Virus record (IMG/VR): IMGVR_UViG_3300025000_000001
Length of the DNA: 20,000 nucleotides
Origin: an uncultured virus (IMG/VR IMGVR_UViG_3300025000_000001)
Taxonomy: Duplodnaviria > Heunggongvirae > Uroviricota > Caudoviricetes
Strand: one strand, 5' to 3'
The stretch's first letter is position 1. The number at the start of each line of letters is the position of its first letter. Position numbers and translations under genes: made by a program. The notes beneath the pieces were generated by a model, which made no database searches, was not told where the DNA came from, and saw only the letters and a program-made list of their open reading frames with translations. Positions 1 through 18,179 of this stretch are shown piece by piece.

Positions 1-487
1 TAAACATCTCTTGTGAAAGTTGTTCCGAATGAAAGAATATGTAGGCTTCCTCGTTTTTATCATTGGCGTCTTGAAACATTTCTCTGTGCGTTTCCATCTT
101 TTTTATCTCAGATAGCCTGCACCAGAATATTTCGTAGTTGTCTTTATCGCCAATGAAGTATACAATTTTCACAGGAACTTTTTCTTTTCTCTGAACAATG
201 TCATAACTGTTGAAACTTCTTTGTTTTAATGCCAAAAATCCGCCATGTTTATAGAATTCCCGCCTACTTTTTACCTCTATCAGCAACAGAAGTCTTCCCT
301 TGTTCTCGGATTTGTTTTCTATATCTGGATATGCTACAAGATATTTTCCGTAATTTTTATGCTGTGCTACAGTTTCGCCATCACTATCCAAACACACGAA
401 CTTAACATATTCTCCATCACCATAAAAATCAGATAAACGGATTATCTCATCTTCCGCCCAATTTGATTTATTGAATTTATAAGCCAT
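1..487 (-). CDS. PD-(D/E)XK (restriction-endonuclease-like fold) nuclease, 3' end runs off the window
   Basis: Not in the ORF track. Hand translation from ATG at 487: MAYKFNKSNWAEDEIIRL...LVAYPDIENK...LLLIEVKSRREF...SFNSYDIV...VKIVYFIG. Open for 162 codons, with E, PD and EVK motifs in canonical order. Confidence 0.65.
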   Translation of the reverse strand, partial: MAYKFNKSNWAEDEIIRLSDFYGDGEYVKFVCLDSDGETVAQHKNYGKYLVAYPDIENKSENKGRLLLLIEVKSRREFYKHGGFLALKQRSFNSYDIVQRKEKVPVKIVYFIGDKDNYEIFWCRLSEIKKMETHREMFQDANDKNEEAYIFFHSEQLSQEMF

Positions 488-809
488 ACTTCTTCTTCTT
501 TTCTTCAATTCTTTTTGAGCGTTCTTCAATTTCTTTGGGGGTGAGAATATCGGACAACTTTGGTAATTCGTAGTCGTCCAACCCCAATTCCGGATGATTT
601 TTTGAAAAGTCAGGGTCATTTAATTCGTATGACAAAACCAAGTCTTCATCAGATTCCAATACTGCAACATTTGCGAAAGCGTCAGTTTCATCGGCTTCAC
701 GAATACCAGCAGACCAGGTTAGCTTTAGAATATCCTTGAGCGTATATTTTTCGTAGACTTTATGAATGTTCAACATCTCATACCACTGTTCAAACGTCAA
801 CTTTTCCAT
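477..809 (-). CDS. hypothetical protein (110 aa)
   Basis: Start moved to MEKLTF (809), with GGAGGA RBS at 815-820; promoter at 872-899. Confidence 0.8.
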   Translation of the reverse strand: MEKLTFEQWYEMLNIHKVYEKYTLKDILKLTWSAGIREADETDAFANVAVLESDEDLVLSYELNDPDFSKNHPELGLDDYELPKLSDILTPKEIEERSKRIEEKKKKYGL

Positions 810-871
810 ATTTATCCTCCTAAAATCAATCACTTATTCTATGATAAAAGGTTTCTTTTGTTTACTTGACT

Positions 872-899
872 ATTTTACCACATTATTTTGTGGTGTCAA
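872..899 (-). promoter_or_regulatory. sigma70-type promoter
   Basis: TTGACA-16-TAAAAT with TG extended -10. Confidence 0.7.
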
Positions 900-1173
900 T
901 AAGGAATTCTCCCTCTTTCTTAGTGGTGAAATATTCTACAAAGCATCGAGCATTACCGGTAGGAGTTTCGCTTTCATATCGAAAGGTTTCAAAAAACTTA
1001 GTTTCTGAATTGTAATGAGAAATATCCTTGATGGTATAAGACTTCGCGCTATTGGGGGCGAAATGTTTTGCTTTCGAGTGAAATGATTTCATAATCACAT
1101 CTAAATCTGCAATTTCTTGCACACCCAGAACATAATACCAATCCGACATTCTGCCATCAACTCTAATTATCAT
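883..1173 (-). CDS. hypothetical protein (~96 aa)
   Basis: Probable start MIIRV at 1173, just after the upstream stop; start uncertain. Confidence 0.6.
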   Translation of the reverse strand: MIIRVDGRMSDWYYVLGVQEIADLDVIMKSFHSKAKHFAPNSAKSYTIKDISHYNSETKFFETFRYESETPTGNARCFVEYFTTKKEGEFLIDTTK

Positions 1174-1177
1174 ATGT

Positions 1178-1396
1178 TTATCCCAACCATTGAAAACTGC
1201 CATCAATAGCATCTTCAAAATTGAGAAATTCCAGAATATCTAGCTCTTCATCGCTGAAGGTTTTGCCACCAACAACAATTTGAAGTTTTTCATCATCTTT
1301 ACGCATCCAGGTATCTTCAAAGAGAGTTGACCATTCATCATTCCCAATTGATTTTAAAATTTGAAAAACAGCTTTATACTTAGCATTCTTAATCAT
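1178..1396 (-). CDS. hypothetical protein (72 aa)
   Basis: GAGGAGG RBS; operonic. Confidence 0.8.
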   Translation of the reverse strand: MIKNAKYKAVFQILKSIGNDEWSTLFEDTWMRKDDEKLQIVVGGKTFSDEELDILEFLNFEDAIDGSFQWLG

Positions 1397-1431
1397 TTCA
1401 AAACCTCCTCATAAAAAGAGTATTTCATTTG

Positions 1432-1794
1432 TTAATCCTCTCGACGACCATAATTATTATAAACGCTGTCTTCTTCAACCCAGGGGGTTCTACAATTTCC
1501 ACAAGTCCACTCAGCACAAGAGCAAGTTCCAATGTGATAAACATCGGGCCAATCAGTCAGAATTTCATCATCTGAATATTCTTCTGCGCCATCAGCCAAG
1601 CCATCAGAATTTACCATGCGAACTCCATCCTGCATATTTACATACCGCCAGTTATATGCGGAATATTTATTGCAAGCGGCGCAAAATTCTATTTCTTCAA
1701 GTTCTACCAGACGATCAAATACCGCTTTGGTATTGAGAAAAAAATCATCTAAGTCCCAAATTTCCTGCGAAGTCAAAGATGCAATGGTTGTCAT
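1432..1794 (-). CDS. acidic, Cys-containing hypothetical protein (possible Zn ribbon)
   Basis: AGGAG RBS; CAAC...CSC...CGNC; 25 D/E versus 8 K/R. Confidence 0.8.
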   Translation of the reverse strand: MTTIASLTSQEIWDLDDFFLNTKAVFDRLVELEEIEFCAACNKYSAYNWRYVNMQDGVRMVNSDGLADGAEEYSDDEILTDWPDVYHIGTCSCAEWTCGNCRTPWVEEDSVYNNYGRRED

Positions 1795-1833
1795 TTGATT
1801 TACTCCTGTCTGAATGTTTTATTTATTGAATGT

Positions 1834-1862
1834 ATTATACACCCGATATTTATTCTTGTCAA
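1834..1862 (-). promoter_or_regulatory. sigma70-type promoter (perfect consensus)
   Basis: TTGACA-17-TATAAT. Confidence 0.9.
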
Positions 1863-1895
1863 GAGGGAAATTTATTCATCGTGCTGGGGCTGATC

Positions 1896-2081
1896 CTATT
1901 TGTTTTCTTCGTAAAATTTTTTATTGACACTTTTTAGAGCAACAAAATCATCAGGCGAAATTCCTTGAGTCAGCATGGCTGCAAGCAAGAATCCATCAAA
2001 GAATTGTTGAGCATAGTCACTTCGATGATTTGTGTAAATTTTTGACATGTCTTCGACAATATCATCATATGAAAGTTGCAT
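1896..2081 (-). CDS. hypothetical protein (61 aa)
   Basis: Start moved to MQLSYD (2081), GAGGAG RBS, directly after the upstream TGA. Confidence 0.75.
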   Translation of the reverse strand: MQLSYDDIVEDMSKIYTNHRSDYAQQFFDGFLLAAMLTQGISPDDFVALKSVNKKFYEENK

Positions 2082-2082
2082 T

Positions 2083-2316
2083 TCACTCTCCTCTCGCAGC
2101 ATGTTGGATTGTTGACCAGAAATCAAAGATAATTTGCTCCGTAACTGGAATTCCAACATCTGAGAGAAAATCCTTCAGAAGAAGTTCTACGCCAACCCCA
2201 GAAACTTTCCACAAAAGAAAGTTTGCTAAGGCTTGCTTTTGCTCCTCTAGGGGGATTTTCTTATTGGTGAATTCTACAAATCCGTGAACATTGTCATAAA
2301 ATCGAAGTTTTTCCAT
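2083..2316 (-). CDS. hypothetical protein (77 aa)
   Basis: AAGGAG RBS, own promoter. Confidence 0.8.
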   Translation of the reverse strand: MEKLRFYDNVHGFVEFTNKKIPLEEQKQALANFLLWKVSGVGVELLLKDFLSDVGIPVTEQIIFDFWSTIQHAARGE

Positions 2317-2345
2317 TTGATTTACTCCTTATTTCTTATACTCAA

Positions 2346-2374
2346 AGTATAACCGATAACTTCAATCCTGTCAA
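2346..2374 (-). promoter_or_regulatory. sigma70-type promoter
   Basis: TTGACA-17-TATACT. Confidence 0.85.
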
Positions 2375-2380
2375 GAGGTA

Positions 2381-2416
2381 AAATAAAACTGACTAGAAAT
2401 CAATTCTAGCCAGTTT
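2381..2416 (-). terminator. intrinsic terminator
   Basis: Minus strand AAACTGGCTAGAA-ttgat-TTCTAGTCAGTTT followed by a T-rich tail. Confidence 0.6.
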
Positions 2417-2517
2417 ATGTATCAAATTACCAAATTTACAGTAAAACGCCACAAAAGCCTTCCTGGTGGCAAACAGAGGGTGTTTTCGTAAAGTTTTGCA
2501 TGGGTAAAATGTTATTT

Positions 2518-2766
2518 TTACTCAATCGTATCTTCTTCTTCATCCTCTTCAAAAACAAAGGTTGGCAAAATCAGATAAGTTAAATGTTTTGGGGCGCGAC
2601 CATCCTCTAAGCGTTCTTGTAAAACCTCGGTAGCACGAACCATACTGACAAATCGCTCCCTACAAGGTTTTGGAAAAACCTCAGAGTTATAACTATCGTG
2701 GATAGCACCCCCAAAACCTAAATGAAAAATACGATACCAAACATTGTGTAATAGACTATTACGCAT
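2518..2766 (-). CDS. hypothetical protein (82 aa, acidic tail)
   Basis: Start moved to MRNSLL (2766), AAGGAG RBS. Confidence 0.75.
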   Translation of the reverse strand: MRNSLLHNVWYRIFHLGFGGAIHDSYNSEVFPKPCRERFVSMVRATEVLQERLEDGRAPKHLTYLILPTFVFEEDEEEDTIE

Positions 2767-3040
2767 TGAAAGCTCCTTCAATAGACTCTGCAAAACTTTC
2801 TTTATAATCATCAACCCAAACTAGCTCCCAAGTTGAACAATTTACAACCCGATATTTAGTATTCTTTTTCGGTTTGCTCTTATAATGCCAGGGCCATCGA
2901 ATAAGAAATTCCGTACAATCTTCATCCAAATAGCCCACAACATCGTTTTTCTTAGCAAGAAGTTTTTTATCATGCTCTGAAACATATTGGGAGCGCAAAT
3001 TTTCATCAGTTGTTGGCTCATATCGAACGTAAATTTTCAT
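2759..3040 (-). CDS. hypothetical protein (93 aa)
   Basis: AGGAG RBS; overlaps the next start. Confidence 0.8.
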   Translation of the reverse strand: MKIYVRYEPTTDENLRSQYVSEHDKKLLAKKNDVVGYLDEDCTEFLIRWPWHYKSKPKKNTKYRVVNCSTWELVWVDDYKESFAESIEGAFNA

Positions 3041-3064
3041 AATATCGCTCCTAAAAGTCTGGTT

Positions 3065-3433
3065 TTATTCCGGCCAACCACCGGGTCCAGTTTCCCAACT
3101 ATTTAAAGTCTTAGGAAACCGGTAGTTAGTTTTCTTGGACGCTTTCTTCAATCCTTCAATGTTGAAATGATTTTTGGCCGCTTCAAGGGTTACTTCTCGC
3201 AAAGTTTTCCCATCCCAAACATACCATTTAGTTTTAGGGTATATGTTCGCTTCAAAGCGATACCACTCGCTGCCTTCAAACCAAATATCAGTTCCGTATT
3301 TATCTAATCCCCAAACAAAACTTTTGCCAGCATTCGCATTGATTTCTTCGATGTCGTAAGCAAAATCGGTTTGATGAAACTTGACAGTTTCGGCTACAAT
3401 TTCAGTCATTTCTCGCAAAAGTTCTTTGTTCAT
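3065..3433 (-). CDS. hypothetical protein (122 aa), paralogous to the C-terminal half of 14093-14680
   Basis: AAGGAG RBS, own promoter; shared DF..D..I..N...FVW....T and YxxD..L...T...AK motifs. Confidence 0.85.
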   Translation of the reverse strand: MNKELLREMTEIVAETVKFHQTDFAYDIEEINANAGKSFVWGLDKYGTDIWFEGSEWYRFEANIYPKTKWYVWDGKTLREVTLEAAKNHFNIEGLKKASKKTNYRFPKTLNSWETGPGGWPE

Positions 3434-3462
3434 TTCAATCTCCTTTTCGTTTGATTGAATAT

Positions 3463-3491
3463 ATTTTACACCCGATTGGGTTTCCTGTCAA
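3463..3491 (-). promoter_or_regulatory. sigma70-type promoter
   Basis: TTGACA-17-TAAAAT. Confidence 0.85.
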
Positions 3492-3607
3492 GAGGGAAAA
3501 CCCAACCAAACCGGCATTCCCCAAATTCCAGTGGAGGCATGACGTAAAACGATCAGCAGTAGGGCCACAATCAATAAAAATGCTATAAATGAGAGAGCGG
3601 TTTTCAT
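3488..3607 (-). CDS. small membrane peptide (39 aa)
   Basis: Not in track: MKTALSFIAFLLIVALLLIVLRHASTGIWGMPVWLGFPS*; AAGGA RBS; one TM helix. Confidence 0.6.
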   Translation of the reverse strand: MKTALSFIAFLLIVALLLIVLRHASTGIWGMPVWLGFPS

Positions 3608-3610
3608 AAC

Positions 3611-3805
3611 TTATTCCTTTTCCCAAAATCCGGTTTCGATTACAAAAAATTCATCAACTCCTCCGCTAGAAAACATTCCAAATCCTTCGGAATAGTAACC
3701 AACGGCTAGGGGATTTTCCTTCAGAAAAGAAAATACTTCATCTTGAGTCATAATAGCATCTCTGAAATTTGACATATTTTCTGTGGGTACAATTCTAACC
3801 AGCAT
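3611..3805 (-). CDS. hypothetical protein (64 aa)
   Basis: AGGAGG RBS. Confidence 0.75.
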   Translation of the reverse strand: MLVRIVPTENMSNFRDAIMTQDEVFSFLKENPLAVGYYSEGFGMFSSGGVDEFFVIETGFWEKE

Positions 3806-3828
3806 ATCAACCTCCTAAAATGTAGTTT

Positions 3829-4161
3829 TTATTCAATCTCATCCAGATTTGAAATTTTACCCAGAATGTTTTCTACTTCTGTTTCGTTTAGCCATCCCAA
3901 AACATCATCAGTAATCGGAGTAGAATAGTCCAATTCGCCGGTGTGATTGGTTACTGCGAGTTCCCACAAGCCTTTTTCACGCCCATAGGAAAACCGGTGT
4001 CTAACCACACTAGCGCCGCGCCCATTGCTAAAACGAAAAACATACTGAATGCCGCCATGCAAATTATTTTCCTCAGCAAACGGAAATCCAAACTTGATTT
4101 TACCATTGACAGCATCACAAAAATCATCAAACAATTTATCCGCTTCATCTTGATCAATCAT
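3829..4161 (-). CDS. conserved phage-type hypothetical protein (110 aa)
   Basis: AGGAG RBS; motif F.NG.GASVV...SYG...GLWELAV...Y.TPITDDVLGWL recalled as recurrent in phage early regions, not verified. Confidence 0.85.
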   Translation of the reverse strand: MIDQDEADKLFDDFCDAVNGKIKFGFPFAEENNLHGGIQYVFRFSNGRGASVVRHRFSYGREKGLWELAVTNHTGELDYSTPITDDVLGWLNETEVENILGKISNLDEIE

Positions 4162-4205
4162 TTTATTTTCTCCTAGTAAATTCGTTCTTTTATCTAACTG
4201 AATAT

Positions 4206-4234
4206 ATTTTACTCGATTATTCTTATCCTGTCAA
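4206..4234 (-). promoter_or_regulatory. sigma70-type promoter
   Basis: TTGACA-17-TAAAAT. Confidence 0.85.
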
Positions 4235-4242
4235 GGATAAGT

Positions 4243-4488
4243 TTATTCTAGCTCGTATCCCAACTTTCGCAATTCCTCATCACACCACTCTTTTCCGCTT
4301 CCTGCTGGCCCAATCTTCCAGTTCAGATTATCAAAGGAATCACCAGAACATTCAAGATTTCTAATTCGTGGATAAATATCTCCGGCGAAAGCATAGCGAT
4401 TCGCAACATCTCGATAATCGCTTCCCTCTATAACTCGGATTGAATAATACTCATAATTAGGAATTTTCATCCAGGGTGAAAGTTTCAT
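4243..4488 (-). CDS. hypothetical protein (81 aa)
   Basis: Start MKLSPW (4488) with GGAGGT RBS. Confidence 0.8.
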   Translation of the reverse strand: MKLSPWMKIPNYEYYSIRVIEGSDYRDVANRYAFAGDIYPRIRNLECSGDSFDNLNWKIGPAGSGKEWCDEELRKLGYELE

Positions 4489-4530
4489 TTTTACCTCCAT
4501 CAAACCATTGTTTTATTCTTCACTAAATAT

Positions 4531-4559
4531 ATTTTACCATAGATCGGCAGGGGAGTCAA
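4531..4559 (-). promoter_or_regulatory. sigma70-type promoter firing away from the oriC-like AT tract
   Basis: TTGACT-17-TAAAAT with TG extension. Confidence 0.75.
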
Positions 4560-4749
4560 TCCCCAATTTCGAAAAATATTTTCCCTTTAATACTATTAAA
4601 TATATAGTAGTATTATACTATTAGTATTATATATTCTTTTATTAAAGGTATTTAATTAAGTATACTATACTAGTAGTATTAGTATAATTAAAATAGTAGT
4701 AGTAGGGGCTGTGGATAACTTTTTTGAAAAGGTAAAATCCGCCTAATAT

Positions 4750-4802
4750 ACCCCCATATATGGGGGTTAATGCCTGTTTTTAGACACTAACCCCCATATA
4801 TG
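4750..4802. repeat. 18-bp perfect palindrome plus a second partial copy
   Basis: ACCCCCATATATGGGGGT at 4750-4767; TAACCCCCATATATG at 4788-4802 is the reverse complement of 4755-4769. Confidence 0.9.
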
Positions 4803-4803
4803 C

Positions 4804-4876
4804 CTGTGGATAACTTTTGATTTTCTGTGGATAACTTTCTAATAACTGTGGATAACTTTCTAATAACTGTGGATAA
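4804..4876. repeat. 21-bp tandem repeat, each unit carrying a DnaA box
   Basis: CTGTGGATAACTTTCTAATAA in two exact copies (4825-4866), flanked by one variant and one partial copy. Confidence 0.95.
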
Positions 4877-4940
4877 GTCATCCGGGTAAAACCTCCGTTT
4901 TATCAGATGAAAATGGTCAACTTTGGGTAAAATTGATTTT

Positions 4941-5180
4941 TTATCCACTGGTAACAGTGTAAAACCATGAACCGATAATTACAGATAGCCCCAATTTCTT
5001 TATAGACTTTTCAATCTCGCTTCCATTCGGAATAATCACAACAATTCTATCTCCAACGGCAGGGGTAATTTTATGCCCGTTGGGAAGTGGATATTTATCG
5101 CCCCAGGGAACTTTACTTCTGTACTCCGGAAGGCTATACCAGTTATGATCTTCTGCTAAGTAGATTAGTCGCTCTTTCAT
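4941..5180 (-). CDS. hypothetical protein (79 aa)
   Basis: GGAGGT RBS, ATGA overlap with the upstream gene. Confidence 0.8.
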   Translation of the reverse strand: MKERLIYLAEDHNWYSLPEYRSKVPWGDKYPLPNGHKITPAVGDRIVVIIPNGSEIEKSIKKLGLSVIIGSWFYTVTSG

Positions 5181-5572
5181 TTTACCTCCAGGATGTTAGG
5201 GAAGTTTTCACCCTCTCCGAAATCTTGCCAGAACTTGAAATCTGCATATCCCTTAGTTAGCATTTCGCTAACCGGACAAACTACCTGATAATTATCGTGA
5301 TTAGTCCAGGCTTTTCCTGCTAAGGTGTGAGAGCCATCGTCTTCAGCAGACTCGCTTTCTACGATGACTATACATTCGCTCAATTGACCTAAAACATCAG
5401 CGACAATAACTCCCCAGCCATTAGTCCAGTATCCTTCAGTCAAATCCCAAAAGACACAATCAGAGCCTTTCTTCTTCAAATCTTCTCGAATTTCTTTCTT
5501 TTCAATCCGATCAGCGATCAATCGGATTCGCAGAGTTTGACCGTTGTTTTTCTTGATAAATTTTACTTCCAT
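5177..5572 (-). CDS. hypothetical protein (131 aa)
   Basis: AAGGAG RBS, own promoter. Confidence 0.85.
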   Translation of the reverse strand: MEVKFIKKNNGQTLRIRLIADRIEKKEIREDLKKKGSDCVFWDLTEGYWTNGWGVIVADVLGQLSECIVIVESESAEDDGSHTLAGKAWTNHDNYQVVCPVSEMLTKGYADFKFWQDFGEGENFPNILEVK

Positions 5573-5601
5573 TTTCGTTCTCCTTATTTAGTGATAAATA
5601 T

Positions 5602-5629
5602 ATTTTACCACAATTTATTCTGCTGTCAA
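5602..5629 (-). promoter_or_regulatory. sigma70-type promoter
   Basis: TTGACA-16-TAAAAT with TG extension. Confidence 0.75.
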
Positions 5630-5638
5630 TAGTGAGTT

Positions 5639-5827
5639 TTATTCCATTTCAAAGCCGGAATTCTTAGCACAAGAATAACAATAAAACTTTTTGTCTTCAG
5701 AGCCATAGTATCTTGCAACCATTTCACAGAAGGAACACTCCCAAGAATTTATTGGTACAATATGGCTGTGAAGTTTTTTTCCAACAAATTTGTATTTTGA
5801 TGTGAGCCATAAAAGTTTTTGAGTCAT
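5639..5827 (-). CDS. small Zn-finger-like protein (62 aa)
   Basis: AAGGAG RBS; CSFC...CYSC. Confidence 0.75.
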   Translation of the reverse strand: MTQKLLWLTSKYKFVGKKLHSHIVPINSWECSFCEMVARYYGSEDKKFYCYSCAKNSGFEME

Positions 5828-5858
5828 GTTCTTACTCCTTTATTCATTCGATAAATAA

Positions 5859-5886
5859 ATTATACTACAAATCAATCCTGTGTCAA
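5859..5886 (-). promoter_or_regulatory. sigma70-type promoter
   Basis: TTGACA-16-TATAAT. Confidence 0.8.
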
Positions 5887-5939
5887 GAGGGAATTTCCGC
5901 CAATAATTTAATATCAAATTCAGGTTTTATCCCATGACA

Positions 5940-6033
5940 CTACAAGCCATTCTGAGGCTGTTTGGAATAATATACGTCAATTGTATACTATTCAATACAA
6001 AAAGCCCCCAGAATCGTTTCTGGAGGCTTGTAG
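5940..6033. repeat. structured dispersed element, copy 1
   Basis: CTACAAGCC (5940-5948) pairs with GGCTTGTAG (6025-6033); shares CTACAAGCCATTCT and further colinear motifs with 17270-17362. Confidence 0.6.
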
Positions 6034-6062
6034 AGGCATGTTTTTGTATTTCTGCCATTATT

Positions 6063-6395
6063 CTAAACAAATAAGGCTTGATATTCTGAATCAAAATCAA
6101 TTACAATTTCAGGTTTGCCAGCCCACAAATCCCACATCCGGTCTTCAATTTGCCAAATTTCTCCAGGCTGAACTTGCAAATACTCATATCCCTTTCGGAG
6201 ATTCAATTCAGTCCATTCTTTTCCGTTCGGCTGAGGCTTGATCTTTTCGTAGAATGCGCCATCTAATTCTAGCATCAGTTTTTCGGCTTGACTTCGAGAG
6301 TTTACATTAACTGAAGTCACAGAGAGATAACCGTTTTCCTGAATGACTCTAACCGACTGAGGGAATACAACCCGATAGAAATAATCTCGTTTCAT
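6063..6395 (-). CDS. hypothetical protein (110 aa)
   Basis: Translationally coupled to the upstream ORF. Confidence 0.75.
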   Translation of the reverse strand: MKRDYFYRVVFPQSVRVIQENGYLSVTSVNVNSRSQAEKLMLELDGAFYEKIKPQPNGKEWTELNLRKGYEYLQVQPGEIWQIEDRMWDLWAGKPEIVIDFDSEYQALFV

Positions 6396-6396
6396 C

Positions 6397-6588
6397 TTAC
6401 CTTTCCTTATAACCTTCTGCTACAAGTTTAGAAGTAAATTCCGCCAACCTTTTCTTGTTCTTGAAGATTTTTAGATCAAAGAATTCGCTTCCATCTTTGT
6501 GAGTTTTTTCGCCATCATGGAAACTAACAGAATATTTGGATGTTCCGATTCCGTATTGGGTATAAAAAACTTTGTTTGAAATGCTCAT
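6397..6588 (-). CDS. conserved phage-type hypothetical protein (63 aa)
   Basis: Start MSISNK with AGGAG RBS; motif QYGIG.SKY.VSFHDG.KTHKDGS.FFD..IFKNK. Confidence 0.8.
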   Translation of the reverse strand: MSISNKVFYTQYGIGTSKYSVSFHDGEKTHKDGSEFFDLKIFKNKKRLAEFTSKLVAEGYKER

Positions 6589-6589
6589 T

Positions 6590-6802
6590 TTAGTCATCTC
6601 CTAAAACTTGTTTGCAATAAGAGTGTAATTCCTCTATTTCGTCTTCTGATAACTTCCTACCGGAATAAGTCATGTTGTAAACCTTCTCGACAATATCCCT
6701 AAGATCAGAAGATAAGGTAATCAGTTCTCCAAGAGTTGAGTCGCTAGAACTTCGGTAAAACCTAATCCAGTCCGTCAAGCTCATTTCGTGTAACTGTTTC
6801 AT
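6590..6802 (-). CDS. hypothetical protein (70 aa)
   Basis: Start MKQLHE, directly after the upstream stop; AAGGA RBS. Confidence 0.7.
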   Translation of the reverse strand: MKQLHEMSLTDWIRFYRSSSDSTLGELITLSSDLRDIVEKVYNMTYSGRKLSEDEIEELHSYCKQVLGDD

Positions 6803-6803
6803 T

Positions 6804-7058
6804 TTATTTTCCTTCTTCATCCTCTTGCACTAATCGGGCATTCAAATCCCACACAATCGAATCGATTTCATCGTAAGATTTGGCAGCATAAAGAGCATGT
6901 GCCAACTCGGTAGCATAATCTGCTACAGCACCAGAACCAAATAGACAATACAAAGCCCTTGCTACATCGTATTTTGTGGTTTCGCGGCTGTCAAATTGAT
7001 CACTCAGGGGAATAACTTCGATTTTGTGTACAGTTTCAATGGTTAAAATTGGTTTCAT
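6804..7058 (-). CDS. hypothetical protein (84 aa)
   Basis: Start moved to MKPILT (7058), AGGA RBS. Confidence 0.7.
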   Translation of the reverse strand: MKPILTIETVHKIEVIPLSDQFDSRETTKYDVARALYCLFGSGAVADYATELAHALYAAKSYDEIDSIVWDLNARLVQEDEEGK

Positions 7059-7068
7059 GCTAATTTTC

Positions 7069-7221
7069 CTATTCAATCGTAGTGGTATGAATGTTAGTCG
7101 CGCCGATATCAAGCAAATCTTGATAAAAATTATTGTACTGTTTCGCGCTCCAGGTAGGGACAATCTGCCAACGTTTGCGCCCATCCCTGTCAGTCCATTC
7201 AAAACGAGTTTTAGCATTCAT
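7069..7221 (-). CDS. hypothetical protein (50 aa)
   Basis: Not in track: MNAKTRFEWTDRDGRKRWQIVPTW...TTIE*; AAAGGAG RBS. Confidence 0.7.
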   Translation of the reverse strand: MNAKTRFEWTDRDGRKRWQIVPTWSAKQYNNFYQDLLDIGATNIHTTTIE

Positions 7222-7254
7222 GGCCCATCTCCTTTATCAAATGTAACTTTTATT

Positions 7255-7494
7255 CTAATCCGCTTCATAGACCTGTTTAGCGCCGCCGCGACCCAATTTG
7301 CCGGATTTTAGAAAATTGAAAGAATGCTCTGCAATCCAGTGAGAGTCTGAAGTTAATTCTACATTCGGAATGCCGCCAGGATAAATACGCATTACCCGAT
7401 CTAAATTCTCTACGGTCAAGCGATAAATAAAAGCCGCTTTGACTTGCTTTATCTGGTCAGGTGTTAGATTTTCGCCTTTCACTAATTTACCCAT
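7255..7494 (-). CDS. hypothetical protein (79 aa)
   Basis: AGGAG RBS, own promoter. Confidence 0.8.
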   Translation of the reverse strand: MGKLVKGENLTPDQIKQVKAAFIYRLTVENLDRVMRIYPGGIPNVELTSDSHWIAEHSFNFLKSGKLGRGGAKQVYEAD

Positions 7495-7541
7495 TTGATT
7501 TAACTCCTGTTTGCTTATCTTTTGTTTCTAACTCTTGATAT

Positions 7542-7570
7542 ATTATAAACCAAGAGTTTTATTTTGTCAA
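7542..7570 (-). promoter_or_regulatory. sigma70-type promoter (perfect consensus)
   Basis: TTGACA-17-TATAAT; the -35 contains the TGA stop of the upstream gene. Confidence 0.9.
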
Positions 7571-7791
7571 TAGTCAGTTTCGGAAACCTTGAAGATAAAA
7601 ACTTCAGACCCTTCGCGATTCCGAACGACTGCCCGATATTCATTGATTCCAATGGATTCTAGGGTAAACTTTCTGGAATAGTTTTCTTCAATATATTCAC
7701 TGATTGAAAACACTACATCGTCCGTTGTTGAAAACTTATCCAGCGAAATTTCAGCATAGTAAACTTCAACTTGTGTCATGTTTTCCGCCAT
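7567..7791 (-). CDS. acidic hypothetical protein (74 aa)
   Basis: Coupled to the upstream ORF; weak RBS. Confidence 0.7.
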   Translation of the reverse strand: MAENMTQVEVYYAEISLDKFSTTDDVVFSISEYIEENYSRKFTLESIGINEYRAVVRNREGSEVFIFKVSETDY

Positions 7792-7794
7792 TAT

Positions 7795-8169
7795 TTAGAT
7801 TGTAGCAAAGAAATCCGCAAACTTGCAGAGAGTATTGTAAGTTCCAACGGACATTCTAACTCCGGTATTAGGGATTCCAGTCCGCAAATACCAAGCGTAA
7901 ATTTTCAAATACCACTTTGAGAGTAATTTACGTTCAGCAGGTGTAAATTGGGCCAAAAATTCACGCTTACCGCGTCCATAATTTTTGTGGTCGTAAGTTT
8001 CAACAATCACAAAGAGGCGTTTAATATAATCAGAACCAAAAACAGTGACGGTTTTTACACCGCGAAAGTCTACTTGTGGATCGTCTTCATCACTCCGCAA
8101 ATATTGGAGGGTTTCATCGTTCATGTAGAAATTATTCATAACGTCATTCAGGACAGTTTGTTTACCCAT
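7795..8169 (-). CDS. hypothetical protein (124 aa)
   Basis: AAGGAG RBS, own promoter. Confidence 0.85.
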   Translation of the reverse strand: MGKQTVLNDVMNNFYMNDETLQYLRSDEDDPQVDFRGVKTVTVFGSDYIKRLFVIVETYDHKNYGRGKREFLAQFTPAERKLLSKWYLKIYAWYLRTGIPNTGVRMSVGTYNTLCKFADFFATI

Positions 8170-8197
8170 TTTTATCTCCTTATCGTTTGATAATTCA

Positions 8198-8225
8198 ATT
8201 ATATCATATATTCGCCAGAATGCAA
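8198..8225 (-). promoter_or_regulatory. sigma70-type promoter
   Basis: TTGCAT-16-TATAAT with TG extension. Confidence 0.7.
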
Positions 8226-8256
8226 GGTTAAAAGGGCATCAATTTTCCGCCAATAT

Positions 8257-8478
8257 TTACCATAAACAGGCATTCATAATTTCGACGGCTGATTTCAAGG
8301 TAATGATACCATCCGAATCATATTTAATTCCAGAATCAGATGTATAGTCCAGAAAGAAATCTTTAGAGCGGATTAACGGCAAAACATCCGAAGGGCTAAG
8401 TCCCTTGTTTTTCGCCTTAGTATACCCGATGATGTATCCCCTAATTTCCGCTTTTAATTCATTTGATAAAGTTAGCAT
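8257..8478 (-). CDS. hypothetical protein (73 aa)
   Basis: Tandem GGAGTAAAA RBS copies. Confidence 0.75.
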   Translation of the reverse strand: MLTLSNELKAEIRGYIIGYTKAKNKGLSPSDVLPLIRSKDFFLDYTSDSGIKYDSDGIITLKSAVEIMNACLW

Positions 8479-8523
8479 GTTTTACTCCTTTTTACTCCTA
8501 ATTTCCGCCATAAAATAGCATTT

Positions 8524-8736
8524 TTAGATATGTGTACCAGAAGGGTTAAACTCTTTTTCTTTTCCTTCACCCTTCTTAATGGCGTAGTTTATGATCTTCT
8601 TCATTTCTGCTAAAGTTCCGACAAATGGGGGATATGAATTGTAAACAGAATCTTTGCGAAAGAATAAAAACCAATCTCCAGTTAATGAATTCTGTACAAT
8701 CTCAATACCCTTATAGTCTACCTTGTTTTGCGCCAT
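8524..8736 (-). CDS. hypothetical protein (70 aa)
   Basis: AAGGAG RBS. Confidence 0.75.
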   Translation of the reverse strand: MAQNKVDYKGIEIVQNSLTGDWFLFFRKDSVYNSYPPFVGTLAEMKKIINYAIKKGEGKEKEFNPSGTHI

Positions 8737-8738
8737 GA

Positions 8739-8933
8739 TTACTCCTTGAACATCCGATCAAAGTAGATTTGTGAAACTTCAAATTTCCAGTCTTCAGACT
8801 GAGAATCAAGCCAGTCTCTAAAATACGCCATAGAATCAAGTTTGGTTGCATTCTCTGTTAGTGGCCCTTCAGCATAGCAGAGATTGAAAAGTTCTTCTAG
8901 CACATCGTTATATTCTTCAGGTGAGATATCCAT
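8739..8933 (-). CDS. very acidic small protein (64 aa)
   Basis: GGAG RBS; 16 D/E versus 5 K/R. Confidence 0.75.
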   Translation of the reverse strand: MDISPEEYNDVLEELFNLCYAEGPLTENATKLDSMAYFRDWLDSQSEDWKFEVSQIYFDRMFKE

Positions 8934-8959
8934 TTTTGCTCCACTAAATGACAGTTTTA

Positions 8960-9172
8960 TTATCCGACTTTGACAAAAATCTTGACAGTTCCCATTGCTG
9001 GATTTATCGCCATTAATTCAATTCGATAACGAATTTCGTTATCACCAACAATTAAATCTCCGGCAAAAATTGCCATTTCTTCACTGGTAAAATGTTCTAA
9101 AAATCCGACAAAATTTGAAGTTTCAAATCCGTTTTCGTAAAATAAAATCTTCATTCCGTTTACTGAAGTCAT
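8960..9172 (-). CDS. hypothetical protein (70 aa)
   Basis: AAGGA RBS, own promoter. Confidence 0.75.
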   Translation of the reverse strand: MTSVNGMKILFYENGFETSNFVGFLEHFTSEEMAIFAGDLIVGDNEIRYRIELMAINPAMGTVKIFVKVG

Positions 9173-9194
9173 TTTTTATTTCCTTTCTACTATG

Positions 9195-9222
9195 ATTATA
9201 CCGCGATTTGCGCCTACGTCAA
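9195..9222 (-). promoter_or_regulatory. sigma70-type promoter
   Basis: TTGACG-16-TATAAT; the -35 contains the upstream TGA stop. Confidence 0.75.
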
Positions 9223-9371
9223 GAGTCAATTTCTGCAAAGTCACTGAAAGCCCATTCAACCCACTTGTTAAACATTTCATCCCACTCTGCCGGGTCATCT
9301 GGAATTCTGATTCCTTTTTCTGCGTACCATGCTAAGGCGTGGTCGTTCATTGTCGTTTTTGAGTTGTCCAT
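9219..9371 (-). CDS. acidic Trp-rich hypothetical protein (50 aa)
   Basis: Not in track: MDNSKTTMNDHALAWYAEKGIRIPDDPAEWDEMFNKWVEWAFSDFAEIDS*. Confidence 0.65.
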   Translation of the reverse strand: MDNSKTTMNDHALAWYAEKGIRIPDDPAEWDEMFNKWVEWAFSDFAEIDS

Positions 9372-9385
9372 TTTGCGCCTATGTC

Positions 9386-9598
9386 CTAAAAACAAAGATG
9401 ACTATAGAATTTCACGGCATAACTCAGGCTTGAAAATTCTTTAACTGTTTTTCCATTGATATTTAATCGAAAAACCTGATAATTCGAGAGATAGTCTTCA
9501 ATTACAAAAACGTGGAAAAGTTCTTTATTACCATATTGATTAGCTTCAGCCGCCAGAAGTACACTATATTCACCCGACAAATCGTTATACTCAGTCAT
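9386..9598 (-). CDS. hypothetical protein (70 aa)
   Basis: AGGAG RBS. Confidence 0.75.
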   Translation of the reverse strand: MTEYNDLSGEYSVLLAAEANQYGNKELFHVFVIEDYLSNYQVFRLNINGKTVKEFSSLSYAVKFYSHLCF

Positions 9599-9685
9599 TT
9601 TTTAGCTCCTATTTTTCCGCCATAAAATACTTCTTTGATTATTCCGACTAAAACGATCAGAATTCCCCCTAAAATCCTGATTTTA

Positions 9686-9991
9686 TTAATCTAAAGCCTT
9701 CGAAATTGCCATGCGCGCGGCAGTTTTCAAAATACAAGTTTGCCCGGCCTGAGTCAAGAAATCTCCGCATTCCTTTAATTCTTTGCCGGTTTTCCCCCAA
9801 TTTAGACGCATTGCCAAATTATCCCAAGAATTCAACGGGATATTATTCAGGTGTGCATCAGTTTTGAATTTAGATTCCAGATTTTCAATTCCAAAGTTTG
9901 AGACAACGGCAGAAACGAATTTTCCGGCAAATTGCTCATAATACTGGTTGAAATTGCATTCCTGACTCAGATATTGTTTTCGCGTGTACAT
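9686..9991 (-). CDS. conserved phage-type hypothetical protein (101 aa)
   Basis: AAGGAG RBS; MYTRKQY...QYY.QF...D.HLNNIPL..WD...CILK.AAR motif. Confidence 0.85.
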   Translation of the reverse strand: MYTRKQYLSQECNFNQYYEQFAGKFVSAVVSNFGIENLESKFKTDAHLNNIPLNSWDNLAMRLNWGKTGKELKECGDFLTQAGQTCILKTAARMAISKALD

Positions 9992-10040
9992 TTTTGTCTC
10001 CTTAGATTTCTGTTTCTACCATACTCCAATTTCTTCTTAA

Positions 10041-10068
10041 AGTATAGCAGATTTTTGGTATATGTCAA
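10041..10068 (-). promoter_or_regulatory. sigma70-type promoter
   Basis: TTGACA-16-TATACT with TG extension. Confidence 0.75.
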
Positions 10069-10080
10069 TGGTGAACTTTG

Positions 10081-10482
10081 CTAAAAATCGAAGTTGTCCC
10101 AACCTTTAGCGCCTTCCCATTCTGGAAGGCGGCGAATTGCCCAGTCCTTAATCCATTCGAGAATTTTCTTGGCTTGCGATTTCTCCCAACCTTCAAACTC
10201 ACAACTCTGGTAATCAATGCAGGAAATAGCCTTCAGGCATTCAATGGATGAAATCTTTGGGGTGAAAACAAACTCATAAGGATGTGTAGAAACAGAACTA
10301 TTGTACAAATCGTTGACGCTTTTATAATTCGCCTTAATCAAAACTTCGCCCAATTTCTGCAAATCTTTAACGTTGTCAAAATTGTAAATCTTGCGCCCCA
10401 GACGAATCCGATAAAGATTGTGGGCATTTGACCAAGATAAAACGGCGTTGATCGTAGAATCCTGTACAATGAATGCGCTCAT
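10081..10482 (-). CDS. conserved phage/MGE-type hypothetical protein (133 aa)
   Basis: Start moved to MSAFIV (10482), AAGGAG RBS; N..SVN.LY...LKAI.C.DYQSCE...W..S.A...LP.W motif. Confidence 0.85.
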   Translation of the reverse strand: MSAFIVQDSTINAVLSWSNAHNLYRIRLGRKIYNFDNVKDLQKLGEVLIKANYKSVNDLYNSSVSTHPYEFVFTPKISSIECLKAISCIDYQSCEFEGWEKSQAKKILEWIKDWAIRRLPEWEGAKGWDNFDF

Positions 10483-10637
10483 TTCTAAAATTCTCCTTTT
10501 ATTATCTGAATTGGTTATAAATTTTACTCTATCGAAGTTCCAAAGAGTATCCATGCTAGATTCCGACTTATGAATTGCCGGACAAAGGGATTTGTTACCC
10601 TTCAGAACTTCTAACAGTAAACTTTATTCTTGAATAT

Positions 10638-10666
10638 AGTTTACTTGATTATTCCGAAATTGTCAA
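10638..10666 (-). promoter_or_regulatory. sigma70-type promoter overlapping the 3' end of the upstream gene
   Basis: TTGACA-17-TAAACT. Confidence 0.65.
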
Positions 10667-10954
10667 TACCCAATTTTCGGGTAGATTGTCCTCTATTCCA
10701 TATGCCCAATTCGCACTATTTTCCTCTTCATCATCATAAACGGCGCAAACTTCAAGGTAAGTACCAAAATCATGGGGAAAAGATTTAATAGTGAAATATC
10801 CAATTACATCTTCTGGCGTAGGAAACAGAGACTCTAACAGTGATTTGAAACGGCGCGCCTCCTCTAGCATTGCGGGCATATAGTTTTCTTTGTCGGTAAC
10901 ACAAACACAGTTTTCGTTAACCGGGGAAGTTCCAAGAGTGATATAATCTCGCAT
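10649..10954 (-). CDS. conserved phage/MGE-type acidic hypothetical protein (101 aa)
   Basis: Start MRDYIT, AAGGA RBS; P..E.C...FP...F.IKSFPHDFGTY.EV...YD...LPENW motif. Confidence 0.85.
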   Translation of the reverse strand: MRDYITLGTSPVNENCVCVTDKENYMPAMLEEARRFKSLLESLFPTPEDVIGYFTIKSFPHDFGTYLEVCAVYDDEEENSANWAYGIEDNLPENWVLTISE

Positions 10955-11001
10955 GATCAAAATTCCTTTTATCCTTATCTGTTTTATTTTTCGATGATTG
11001 A

Positions 11002-11030
11002 AGTATAAGCGATATCTTTTGTTTTGTCAA
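11002..11030 (-). promoter_or_regulatory. leftward promoter of the divergent pair
   Basis: TTGACA-17-TATACT. Confidence 0.85.
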
Positions 11031-11180
11031 GCGGTTTTATAAACTCATTTTATACCAGTTTTACGCCCAAAAAAGCTAAAATCAGTCTGTTTTGAGCGCA
11101 TAAATCGCTTATTTCATTTATGTTTAACGCCGGTTTTTGTCGGTAAAATAGACCAGGTTTATCAGATTTGAAAAAAAGAC

Positions 11181-11208
11181 TTGACATTATAGGCGATTTG
11201 TGTATAAT
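11181..11208 (+). promoter_or_regulatory. rightward promoter of the divergent pair
   Basis: TTGACA-16-TATAAT. Confidence 0.85.
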
Positions 11209-11240
11209 ATGATCATATTCAATAAACAGGAGAAACGATC

Positions 11241-14038: not shown

Positions 14039-14055
14039 ACTTAATCGGTTATGAT
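14027..14055 (+). promoter_or_regulatory. sigma70-type promoter
   Basis: TTGACA-17-TATGAT. Confidence 0.85.
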
Positions 14056-14092
14056 TAGTATATCAGTAAAAACTAATCAGGAGAAAAAAGCA

Positions 14093-14680
14093 ATGGCAAC
14101 TAAGAAAAACTACCAATTTTATCCAGTTTTCAACGGTGTGAAAATTGAAGAAAAAACAGGCAATTGCAGAGAGTATTTGGAAGTGACATACTCACATGAC
14201 AAAAAGCTAAAAATTGAAGAGTGGCATTATCGTTTGCTGTATAATTTGGAGGATTCTCTTGCGCGTTGGGTACACAATCCGACTGATTATATCTCAGAGA
14301 AGGCATTAACGGACGCTATCAAAGAGTGCAAGCGACAACATGCCAAAATGGTTAAAGAAATCAAATTGGGCCAAAAACATCCGATTTTTGAAATCTTAAA
14401 GCCCATTGCAGAATCGACCCTTAAGCACTTTCGAGAAGATTTTTACCACTGGGACGCGTTACGAATTCAGCAGAATAATCCGACAAAGTTTGTCTGGATT
14501 ATCTCGGAATCTCATACTCATTTGTTGGATAATAATAACCGTTGGAATCGGGGTGTAATCGAATATACCGAAAAACAGACAAATGATACCGTTTATATCT
14601 ATGATAAGGGTAAACTGGTAAAATCTACCATTCAGACAGCAAAGCACTTTTTACAGACTGAATTCGAGTATGTAGACTAG
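14093..14680 (+). CDS. two-domain hypothetical protein (195 aa); C-terminal half paralogous to 3065-3433
   Basis: Start moved to MATKKN, AGGAG RBS. Confidence 0.85.
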   Translation: MATKKNYQFYPVFNGVKIEEKTGNCREYLEVTYSHDKKLKIEEWHYRLLYNLEDSLARWVHNPTDYISEKALTDAIKECKRQHAKMVKEIKLGQKHPIFEILKPIAESTLKHFREDFYHWDALRIQQNNPTKFVWIISESHTHLLDNNNRWNRGVIEYTEKQTNDTVYIYDKGKLVKSTIQTAKHFLQTEFEYVD

Positions 14681-16651: not shown

Positions 16652-16921
16652 ATGTTAGCAAAAAACGCAAATAAGATTAATAAAGAGTTGGGAAAATTGA
16701 CATATAACACCTATTTTGTCGAGATTCCCCTGCGTCAAATCTTTGACATTTTAGCCAAATGCGACCAAATTCCTCTGGATATTGATGGGACTCCGTGGTC
16801 GGGTATACTTTGCGGGCATAATGGTCAAATGCGACCAGAATTGTCTGGTTCGGGTTGACTGAATCTGTCATGGTATCAAATGGCAAGCGGACGGTATGAA
16901 ATTACAGTATATGTAAGCTAA
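16652..16921 (+). pseudogene. hypothetical gene interrupted by an in-frame TGA at 16856-16858 (nonsense or readthrough)
   Basis: The frame continues LNLSWYQMASGRYEITVYVS to TAA at 16919-16921, with a terminator 18 nt later. Confidence 0.65.
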
Positions 16922-16939
16922 TAAGACCAAAATTATCCG

Positions 16940-16972
16940 GTATCCCTGCCTTCGGGTAGGGATACTTTTTTT
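16940..16972 (+). terminator. strong intrinsic terminator
   Basis: GTATCCCTGCC-TTCG-GGTAGGGATAC followed by T7; cUUCGg tetraloop. Confidence 0.9.
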
Positions 16973-17269
16973 AACTAATTCCCACCTAAAAGGTCTATTT
17001 TATCAGAATTCCGCCTATCCGATCCCCTATAATCGGATAATTCCGGTGAAATTCCCCCAAATTCCGGCTGAGTTTTCGCCCAAAACTTCGGCTAAAATCC
17101 GACAATAAAGGTAAAATTCCCCCTAATTTTCGGCGTAAAATTCCCCCAAAATGCGCCAGGCTCTTAATTGGATAATGTTGGTCTAAATACTAATCATCAG
17201 AGGATTAGAACGCTTATGCTATGGACATACGTTCTATTCGGATATAGTTTATCATATACCTGTAGATTG

Positions 17270-17362
17270 CTACAAGCCATTCTAAGACGTTTCTACGGGT
17301 TATAGGTCAAAGTATACCTGTATTTTAAAAATAGCCCTATTTGACCCCAGAACGCCCTAGAA
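17270..17362. repeat. structured dispersed element, copy 2
   Basis: CTACAAGCCATTCT identical to 5940-5953; imperfect hairpin including GGTCAAA/TTTGACC. Confidence 0.6.
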
Positions 17363-17367
17363 CGCGA

Positions 17368-17388
17368 CGCGTCATAAAATTATTGTAT
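17368..17388. repeat. left arm of an inverted repeat with 19849-19872
   Basis: CGCGTCATAAAATT-ATTGTAT. Confidence 0.65.
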
Positions 17389-17520
17389 AATCCTTTAACA
17401 TTTCTAATATTCATTATCTGAATTATAACGCCCACAGAGTATAATTAAAATGAAGTGTTCTATAAATTGCGCTTGTTATAGAACGCCAGATTAGAATTAG
17501 ATTAATGATAGTAGAATCAC

Positions 17521-17548
17521 TTGACATAGAGTAAAATACTGGTAAACT
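17521..17548 (+). promoter_or_regulatory. sigma70-type promoter
   Basis: TTGACA-16-TAAACT with TG extension. Confidence 0.7.
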
Positions 17549-17596
17549 TATTATAGTTTAGTCAATAAAAAACATTCTGAAGATTGGAGATTAAAA

Positions 17597-17725
17597 ATGT
17601 ACGCAATTTTGCAAAAAAAAGGTGACTCTGGTAGGCTTTTTGACTTTGAAGGGACTCTTCTGTTTCGTGGAACTATTGCAGAGTGCAAAGCATGGGCGCG
17701 GTCAAATGGTTGGGTTATAATCTAA
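17597..17725 (+). CDS. hypothetical protein (42 aa)
   Basis: Not in track: MYAILQKKGDSGRLFDFEGTLLFRGTIAECKAWARSNGWVII*; GGAG RBS. Confidence 0.7.
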   Translation: MYAILQKKGDSGRLFDFEGTLLFRGTIAECKAWARSNGWVII

Positions 17726-17727
17726 CC

Positions 17728-17799
17728 ATGATAATTAAGATGGTAGTTCTCGTATTTATCATCATCGTTCTGCTAGTCGGTTTAGCAGATTGCCAGTAA
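17728..17799 (+). CDS. 23-aa hydrophobic peptide
   Basis: MIIKMVVLVFIIIVLLVGLADCQ*; starts 2 nt after the upstream stop and ends 9 nt before a terminator. Confidence 0.45.
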   Translation: MIIKMVVLVFIIIVLLVGLADCQ

Positions 17800-17808
17800 A
17801 ATAGACCC

Positions 17809-17845
17809 AAGTAGTCCAGTTTCCAGGAGGAGACTGGACTACTTT
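17809..17845 (+). terminator. intrinsic terminator / hairpin
   Basis: AAGTAGTCCAGTTTCC-agga-GGAGACTGGACTACTT. Confidence 0.75.
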
Positions 17846-18093
17846 AACGTGTAAAATCGGACATTTATGGTAATATTCGGAATTAGACCAAATTACTCTA
17901 AATACTAAAAATACCAAAAAGGTCTAAATAGTATTTAGATGAAAAAGGTCTAATTTCTATTTTGATATTTTATACCGGAATTATCCAAATTCCAGGCCCA
18001 GCGCCGGTATTCGGATAAGAATAGTCTTATTTGATTTTGTCAAGGGTGATTCTGAGTACAAAATGTAATAAGATTAAATCACCCTTTTATGAC

Positions 18094-18152: not shown

Positions 18153-18179
18153 ACACAGTTAATCAAATGGAGTGTAAAA

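Follow-up and report, generated by a model that had tools for sequence, protein, structure and literature searches.

Sequence signature of a bacterial-type DnaA unwinding module in a phage-like contig, a candidate host-DnaA-dependent origin

The usual account of a phage replication origin is that of a site on which a phage-encoded initiator acts, host DnaA being at most an accessory. A 20,000-nucleotide stretch of an uncultured virus of the Caudoviricetes (IMG/VR record IMGVR_UViG_3300025000_000001; this whole stretch is hereafter the window) raises the question of whether a phage could instead start replication from a chromosome-type DnaA site. The element concerned occupies a 437-bp gap (4504-4940) free of open reading frames (ORFs) between two small minus-strand ORFs, and combines an AT-rich tract, DnaA-trios and a cluster of DnaA boxes. 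Solely based on sequence, we consider this gap to be the replication origin of a phage, or of a phage-like element, that would depend on host DnaA, with a probability of roughly 0.6; titration of DnaA would likely be a side effect.

The core of the element reads 5'-TAGTAGTAGTAG (4694-4705)-GGGC (4706-4709)-TGTGGATAA (4710-4718)-3' on the plus strand. The first block consists of four in-register DnaA-trios 5'-TAG-3' (that is, 3'-GAT-5'), beyond which AAA at 4691-4693 forms a fifth NAN triplet. The second is a GC cluster or spacer, and the third a perfect proximal DnaA box, single rather than tandem, which resembles R1 of Escherichia coli or box#6 of Bacillus subtilis. The adjoining plus-strand segment 4586-4693 is an AT-rich tract similar to a DNA unwinding element (DUE), with 87% A+T and TAGTA(T/G)-type repeats; TAGTAG is found five times in this tract and once in the rest of the window. 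The least stable duplex of the 20 kb lies here, at 4595-4695 (z = 5.0 for nearest-neighbour free energy in 100-bp windows, the runner-up reaching z = 2.8), and the value holds at z = 5.0-5.1 with windows of 100-120 bp.

Four further perfect boxes, co-oriented with the proximal one, start at 4805, 4826, 4847 and 4868 (array 4805-4876, plus strand; extended unit CTGTGGATAACTTT). They read TTATCCACA on the minus strand and are spaced by exactly 21 bp, Tandem Repeats Finder reporting a period of 21 bp with zero indels. The five perfect boxes of the window are thus confined to 167 bp. This number is not due to chance, since 0.27 perfect boxes are expected in 20 kb and none of 200 dinucleotide-preserving shuffles reached five. 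If one mismatch is allowed, the number of boxes in the 20 kb is unremarkable (10, where 6.6 would be expected), so that the signal resides in the tight clustering of perfect sites. A sixth box, inverted and with one mismatch (4941-4949, minus strand; TTATCCACT on the plus strand), overlaps the stop codon of ORF 4941-5180. Measured from the proximal box, the other five lie at 95, 116, 137, 158 and 231 bp, which, with 10.5 bp to a turn, corresponds to 9.05, 11.05, 13.05, 15.05 and 22.0 turns of the helix. As these offsets are close to whole numbers, all six boxes are predicted to be in helical phase and to share one face of the helix. An inverted repeat (4750-4802) separates the proximal box from the four-box array; its 21-nt arms at 4755-4775 and 4782-4802 are 90% complementary, and it includes two ACCCCCATATATG copies. 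Folded as single-stranded DNA it reaches -13.9 kcal/mol (z = -4.0), which none of 200 shuffles matched, and it may be a protein-binding or cruciform site. The boxes, the AT-tract repeat and this one inverted repeat are the repeats found in 4480-4980.

Such an arrangement recalls the basal unwinding system (BUS) of bacterial origins. In the part of PMC8287927 consulted, a BUS is defined by a box with at most two mismatches, a spacer of 0-16 bp ending in a GC-rich cluster of about 4 bp, and three or more NAN trios; a single box is accepted as well by the published search program. The trio consensus is given as 3'-GAT-5' in the consulted part of PMC10721633. We scanned one genome per species for TAGTAGTAG-N4-TGTGGATAA and obtained at least 120 loci from many phyla, of which 80 were compared with their 2.5-kb flanks. 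dnaA and/or dnaN was found within 2.5 kb in 62 of these 80 loci (59 dnaA, 56 dnaN), on which ground we regard this core as a strong oriC signature, correctly oriented in the window. The 120 bacterial matches listed share a common layout, i.e., AT-rich DNA, trios, a mostly G/C spacer (at least three of four bases in 85 of the 120), a box and usually a second box. The strand and side of the trios in the window are those of these 120 matches, of E. coli MG1655 oriC and of Bacillus sp. L172, whose core sits between dnaA and dnaN. The original prediction had proposed a tract of about 85% A+T ending in trios, GGGC and a box, followed by four more co-oriented boxes 21 bp apart, in the order of a BUS. 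All of this was recovered (4586-4705 is 85% A+T), strand and spacing agreeing with the above definition as given in PMC8287927, with E. coli oriC and with the bacterial matches listed.

Considered as geometry, the window therefore presents the box, the spacer, at least three trios, the AT-rich element and the phased distal boxes of a BUS, and lacks tandem proximal boxes and the chromosomal-origin setting beside dnaA/dnaN. Compared to the incC BUS of B. subtilis (PMC6669920, PMC8287927 and PMC10721633, each as far as consulted), it shares a consensus box, a 4-bp GC spacer, at least four trios on the same strand and side, an AT-rich tract beyond the trios, and distal boxes in helical phase, which in B. 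subtilis are described as acting through phasing and looping (PMC6669920, same part). It differs in its single proximal box, where B. subtilis has the DnaA-box#6/#7 tandem pair, and in its location, neither between dnaA and dnaN nor in a chromosome-like context. With E. coli oriC it shares a DUE located 5' of TGTGGATAA (R1) with a GC-rich junction, a potential site for an architectural protein in the spacer that separates the proximal box from the array, and a far-end inverted box resembling the inverted R4 position. A gene transcribed into the box side and a promoter directed away from the DUE side also recall the gidA/mioC geometry. However, the window has neither 13-mer nor GATC repeats, and its boxes are all high-affinity sites at 21 bp while those of E. 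coli oriC are spaced by 11 bp and include low-affinity sites.

The distal array sets the window apart from bacterial BUS loci, in that its boxes form a co-oriented array of exactly 21 bp. Within 600 bp behind the BUS, not even two co-oriented perfect boxes at 21-bp phase occur in any of the 80 flanked bacterial loci; 11 of them have two inverted boxes at this phase. This bears on the idea that the element is an inert remnant, i.e., a piece of a host oriC captured by recombination and without any role. Phages do pick up host DNA, and the core equals bacterial origins base for base. Yet no similarity beyond the motifs was found between the window and any of the 120 bacterial loci compared, which does not indicate recent capture from a compared host. 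Five perfect boxes and their phasing are not expected to last without selection, and the array is of a viral rather than a bacterial type. We therefore hold an inert remnant to be very unlikely.

The original prediction had suggested scanning related phage genomes for the combination of box and trios, and the motif does recur in viral contigs. The exact BUS core was found in 17 IMG/VR contigs, about 13 once near-identical ones are removed, whereas two composition-matched controls, in which the trios are placed on the opposite side or strand, occur in 2 and 4 contigs. In many of the 17 the spacer is GC-rich, and tandem as well as additional boxes occur. Three boxes at an exact 21-bp phase were found in 69 IMG/VR contigs representing about 40 sequence families, and in 56 of the 69 the phased arrays lie outside any stop-free frame of at least 150 amino acids; carriers of 21-bp arrays include the cultured Lactococcus phages of the 949 group. 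The longest arrays found, seven perfect co-oriented boxes at an exact 21-bp period, belong to three related IMG/VR contigs (L027, L029 and L057). In six others (L004, L049, L064, L037, L044 and L070) the phased boxes are inside long open frames of 322-638 codons and may be coding repeats rather than DnaA sites. A DnaA domain was detected in none of 49 viral carrier records, including 14 that are at least 90% complete, 20 of the 69 array contigs being outside this search. Likewise, tblastn with DnaA and DnaN of one bacterial locus, both verified with Pfam, yielded no match in 124 viral or phage loci, as far as their sequence was retrieved.

These arrays also bear on the proposal that the cluster is solely a DnaA sink, which would titrate or inactivate host DnaA and shut down host initiation with no initiation taking place at the element itself. 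Five perfect high-affinity boxes within 167 bp suit this role, as do the co-oriented 21-bp arrays lacking recognizable trios in the 69 IMG/VR contigs; the absence of 21-bp arrays from the 80 bacterial BUS loci suggests an array use specific to phages. The E. coli datA locus and other DnaA-titrating clusters likewise consist of closely packed high-affinity boxes at a distance from dnaA. datA, however, is not known to have trios or an unwinding element, whereas the cluster of the window is joined to a full unwinding module. Trios in register, a GC cluster and the least stable duplex immediately next to the proximal box, on the correct side, are not needed by a sink, and the trio-GC-box syntax marks oriC in bacteria (62 of the 80 flanked loci). 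Moreover, an origin may titrate DnaA as well, and is expected to. A role restricted to titration consequently appears fairly unlikely.

Among the viral carriers of the BUS core, a complete 161.6-kb phage genome (G012, IMG/VR; loci L245-L253) has 10 of its 11 perfect boxes together with the core at 78,996-79,414. Its layout is TAGTAGTAG-GGGC-tandem boxes, with co-oriented boxes at +52 and +64 followed by six inverted boxes. This is close to a textbook copy of oriC without a DnaA gene and a cleaner case than the window. Pfam searches on 38 surrounding ORFs revealed nucleotide-metabolism genes and no replication initiator or helicase, for which reason the gene context is uninformative. In three other carriers (L110, L112 and L118) the element lies within modules of the recombination/replication type, with a RecE-like exonuclease and a Holliday-junction resolvase. 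No literature title or abstract on DnaA-trios or a BUS in a phage was found, full texts naming both not having been checked; one phage genome paper includes, in the part consulted, an Ori-Finder prediction with DnaA boxes (PMC11512268).

The closest cultured counterpart of the array is found in Lactococcus phage 949 (NC_015263, 19.0-20.07 kb) and its relatives AM4, AM5, LW81, P1048 and WRP3. Phage 949 shares with the window four co-oriented perfect boxes at 20-22 bp spacing, a tract of 80% A+T preceding them on the same side, a location among small early ORFs, for phage 949 within the largest of their non-coding gaps, and the lack of a DnaA gene. It differs in that its first box adjoins neither a trio run nor a GC cluster, and in having three extra boxes about 300 bp away and many other repeats. 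Many copies of a 'GTTTGGTTTCAAAAAT'-like repeat stand beside the boxes in this gap (about 19.1-19.5 kb of NC_015263; 2500-2900 of our locus L001), and the record annotates neither boxes nor repeats. For its first 50 kb it names a primase and a replicative helicase, with no initiator listed, and we found no paper on the non-coding DnaA-box cluster of phage 949.

DnaA boxes in a phage lacking dnaA have also been given a role other than replication. In the consulted part of a preprint by Davison (bioRxiv 10.1101/866236), 25 T5-like phages are reported to have about eight DnaA boxes in the non-coding part of their first-step-transfer region, among pre-early genes, and incoming T5 DNA is proposed to pause as these boxes bind membrane-associated DnaA. 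The window could similarly contain an injection stop or membrane anchor, since it too is an early-gene region with several boxes in a non-coding stretch. The T5 boxes, however, are described in the same part as pairs 3 bp apart within inverted repeats, with a 52-bp spacer and many variant boxes, situated in a terminal repeat along with the A1/A2 genes; there is no BUS, and the author argues that they are not an origin (10.1101/866236). The window has a phased array of boxes co-oriented at 21 bp and a full BUS, and no A1/A2-like genes were recognized among its ORFs. The contig continues for at least 35 kb on the left of the element and for 15 kb on its right, so that no visible end is close to the site, and the T5 model is itself only a proposal. 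We consider a T5-type stop highly improbable here.

Is the DNA that carries the element actually that of a phage? We took 44 ORFs as genes, with a median of 92 amino acids, covering 70% of the window. Pfam recognizes just one of them, as a UvrD-type helicase that carries a topoisomerase-type zinc ribbon (18180-19784), and four have a PHROG family, one of these matches being weak. The helicase matches phrog_1967 (E 3.6e-94) and has relatives in 128 phage records, at about 30-33% identity, and in 16 IMG/VR contigs; ORF 3829-4161 has relatives in 19 IMG/VR contigs. These 19 and 16 loci are distant relatives, and none of them contains a box cluster, the maximum being two scattered boxes at one locus. 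As the original prediction had stated, no dnaA, dnaN or Rep gene is present in the window (Pfam and PHROGs on the 44 ORFs, tblastn for DnaA and DnaN). A Rep/iteron origin of the P1 oriR, F or pSC101 type accordingly has no counterpart at the element, no Rep/initiator family being found among the 44 ORFs. ORF 14051-14680 gave no usable ESM Atlas match. The viral nature that the original prediction had asked to see confirmed is suggested by the gene style, the four PHROG matches and the phage relatives of the helicase, but not by structural genes, since no capsid, terminase or other structural gene is visible in the 20 kb. For lack of such a gene, we can only infer that the contig belongs to a phage of large size or, failing that, to a phage-like mobile element.

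A non-phage contig, i.e., a bacterial (e.g., candidate phyla radiation) chromosome, a chromid or a plasmid with its own oriC away from dnaA, would be consistent with this lack of capsid and terminase genes, with the groundwater or soil metagenomes from which the DNA derives, and with about 18 of the 80 bacterial BUS loci having neither dnaA nor dnaN within 2.5 kb. Small ORFs with so few Pfam and PHROG assignments, strong divergent consensus promoters heading two blocks of small genes, the phage family of the helicase, the IMG/VR relatives of ORF 3829-4161 and the failure to find any housekeeping gene, tRNA or Rfam family in the window all argue against it, and we judge this origin of the contig quite unlikely. 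Shine-Dalgarno sequences and -35/-10 promoters are visible in the window, which presumably points away from Bacteroidota as host.

The assembly around the element appears sound. The DNA is present in at least 13 runs from six studies of groundwater and soil metagenomes, and Logan contigs extend at least 35 kb to the left of the element and 15 kb to the right. In run X4, a 40.3-kb contig ends in the array and a 15.1-kb contig starts there, and the genome measures at least 55 kb. That contigs end at the 21-bp array is what a repeat would lead one to expect. Depths to the left and right of the array are 74/79, about 5/6 and about 8/6 in three runs, and a 50-bp unitig of the array has a depth of 70, as expected for a single copy. 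Consequently there is no sign of a chimera, which had been named as a possible refutation of the original prediction, or of a collapsed array. The Joint Genome Institute (JGI) metagenome contigs contain no exact match to a 39-mer taken from the junction. Blastn of the window against IMG/VR returned matches to the boxes only, and the window was not among the IMG/VR contigs with the array pattern.

The genes surrounding the element all point leftward from 1 to 10960, and those from 11241 onwards point rightward. The divergent early-promoter gap in between (10960-11240) holds the GC-skew minimum of the window. There, a near-consensus promoter TTGACA-17-TGTGTATAAT (11181-11209) is placed to drive the rightward block, and a minus-strand TTGACA-17-TATACT match (about 11040-11012) the leftward one. 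The gap of the element is among three gaps larger than 400 bp in the central 2-16 kb. It is flanked by minus-strand ORFs of 86 (4243-4503) and 79 amino acids (4941-5180), both without family, the latter being transcribed toward the box array. A sigma-70-like promoter TTGACT-17-TG-n-TAAAAT with an extended -10 (4531-4559, minus strand; 10 of 12 consensus positions) would, as a consensus match only, direct transcription leftward into ORF 4243-4503, away from the AT tract.

DnaA-box clusters are known as regulators in bacteria. Box-bound DnaA could thus regulate or block transcription of the early operon, be it read-through from ORF 4941-5180 or transcription starting at the 4559-4531 promoter, timing its genes to the replication state of the host; the location of the element inside a co-directional leftward block, with a good promoter match just past the AT tract, would agree with this. 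The nearest box, however, lies about 150 bp from the -35 hexamer, and helical phasing over 231 bp fits looping or oligomer assembly better than simple repression. Trios, GC cluster and 110 bp of extreme AT content would be left without explanation, and we regard such transcriptional control as unlikely. More generally, decoy, transcriptional switch and T5-type stop are ranked below the origin because none of them needs trios, a GC cluster and a melt-prone tract in register.

If the element is an origin, host DnaA-ATP would bind the five perfect boxes and the inverted sixth. The phased array would concentrate DnaA and deliver it to the proximal box by looping across the inverted-repeat spacer. 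From this box a DnaA filament would extend over GGGC onto the TAG trios of one strand and melt the adjacent 110-bp AT tract, where a replicative helicase, either from the host or encoded by the phage, would be loaded next. Transcription from ORF 4941-5180 and from the promoter directed away from the AT tract may aid melting. Each replicated genome would add five to six high-affinity boxes, and depletion of host DnaA is therefore expected as a side effect.

Several observations weigh against an origin at this site. The original prediction had expected a GC-skew inflection at the element, but the skew does not turn at 4.7 kb; its sole inflection is found at about 11 kb, at the point where the genes change direction, and the genes on both sides of the element are co-directional. 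In the complete phage genome G012 the element does coincide with the bin of the cumulative G-C minimum and with a divergent strand switch, a coincidence confounded by transcription direction. A tandem second box with at most two mismatches at an offset of 8-12 occurs in 105 of the 120 bacterial matches listed, and the BUS of B. subtilis requires one according to the consulted part of PMC6669920; the window has none, its best candidate showing three mismatches at offset 12. Five of the boxes are perfect relative to the consensus TGTGGATAA, and the host may have a DnaA-box preference of its own. Conservation adds nothing, since contigs of four runs are identical to the window and offer no sequence variants, while ORF 5177-5572 has a single weak IMG/VR match (27 residues, E 5e-4) and none in JGI metagenome contigs. 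Since the window covers 20 kb and the genome at least 55 kb, an initiator of the phage's own and another origin may be located elsewhere, and the claim of the original prediction that host DnaA alone might suffice cannot be made. The region at 16.9-18.2 kb could itself be the real or a second origin, with iterons, or else a regulatory region. Finally, nothing in this analysis separates an origin from a decoy.

The region just mentioned (16860-18180) spans 1.3 kb upstream of the helicase gene, lacks any ORF of at least 60 amino acids and includes the second least stable duplexes of the window. Three iteron-like G-T-A/G-AAATTCCCCC-A/T-AA copies occur at 17046-17155, 12 kb from the element, and three GGTCTAAATA-type repeats with a 26-bp period at 17895-17959. 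On the other side of the helicase gene, directly 3' of it and of a terminator-like hairpin, a perfect 47-bp tandem repeat of at least 2.7 copies (19874-20000) runs off the end of the window; it is GC-rich in a genome of 37% GC. Its unitigs have depths of 508 and 470 against 79 for the flanks in run X4. Given this roughly sixfold excess, the array is longer than shown here or its unit is common to other abundant DNA.

What the window seems to offer is a known bacterial unwinding module, here in a phage, and what would be new is its combination of a single proximal box with a phased array typical of phages. A broader reading, which we put forward tentatively and hold to be possible rather than probable, is that scattered tailed phages have dropped their phage-encoded origin-binding protein and carry a chromosome-type DnaA module with a dual role, firing replication and draining host DnaA. 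This set would comprise the groundwater phage described here, some twelve IMG/VR lineages in which the exact BUS core is present and, perhaps, the Lactococcus 949 group, the module of the window being a BUS fused to the phage-specific co-oriented 21-bp array. Accumulating copies would drain DnaA from the host origin, thereby coupling phage replication to host shut-off.

The element would represent a natural, minimal and portable BUS variant for studying how box, phasing and trios cooperate, and its signature may serve to predict origins in uncultured phages. As cultured phages, the members of the Lactococcus 949 group would allow a direct look at DnaA dependence. If the origin reading is true, some phages would initiate replication exactly like the host chromosome, and such phages would both depend on and compete for the master initiator of their host.

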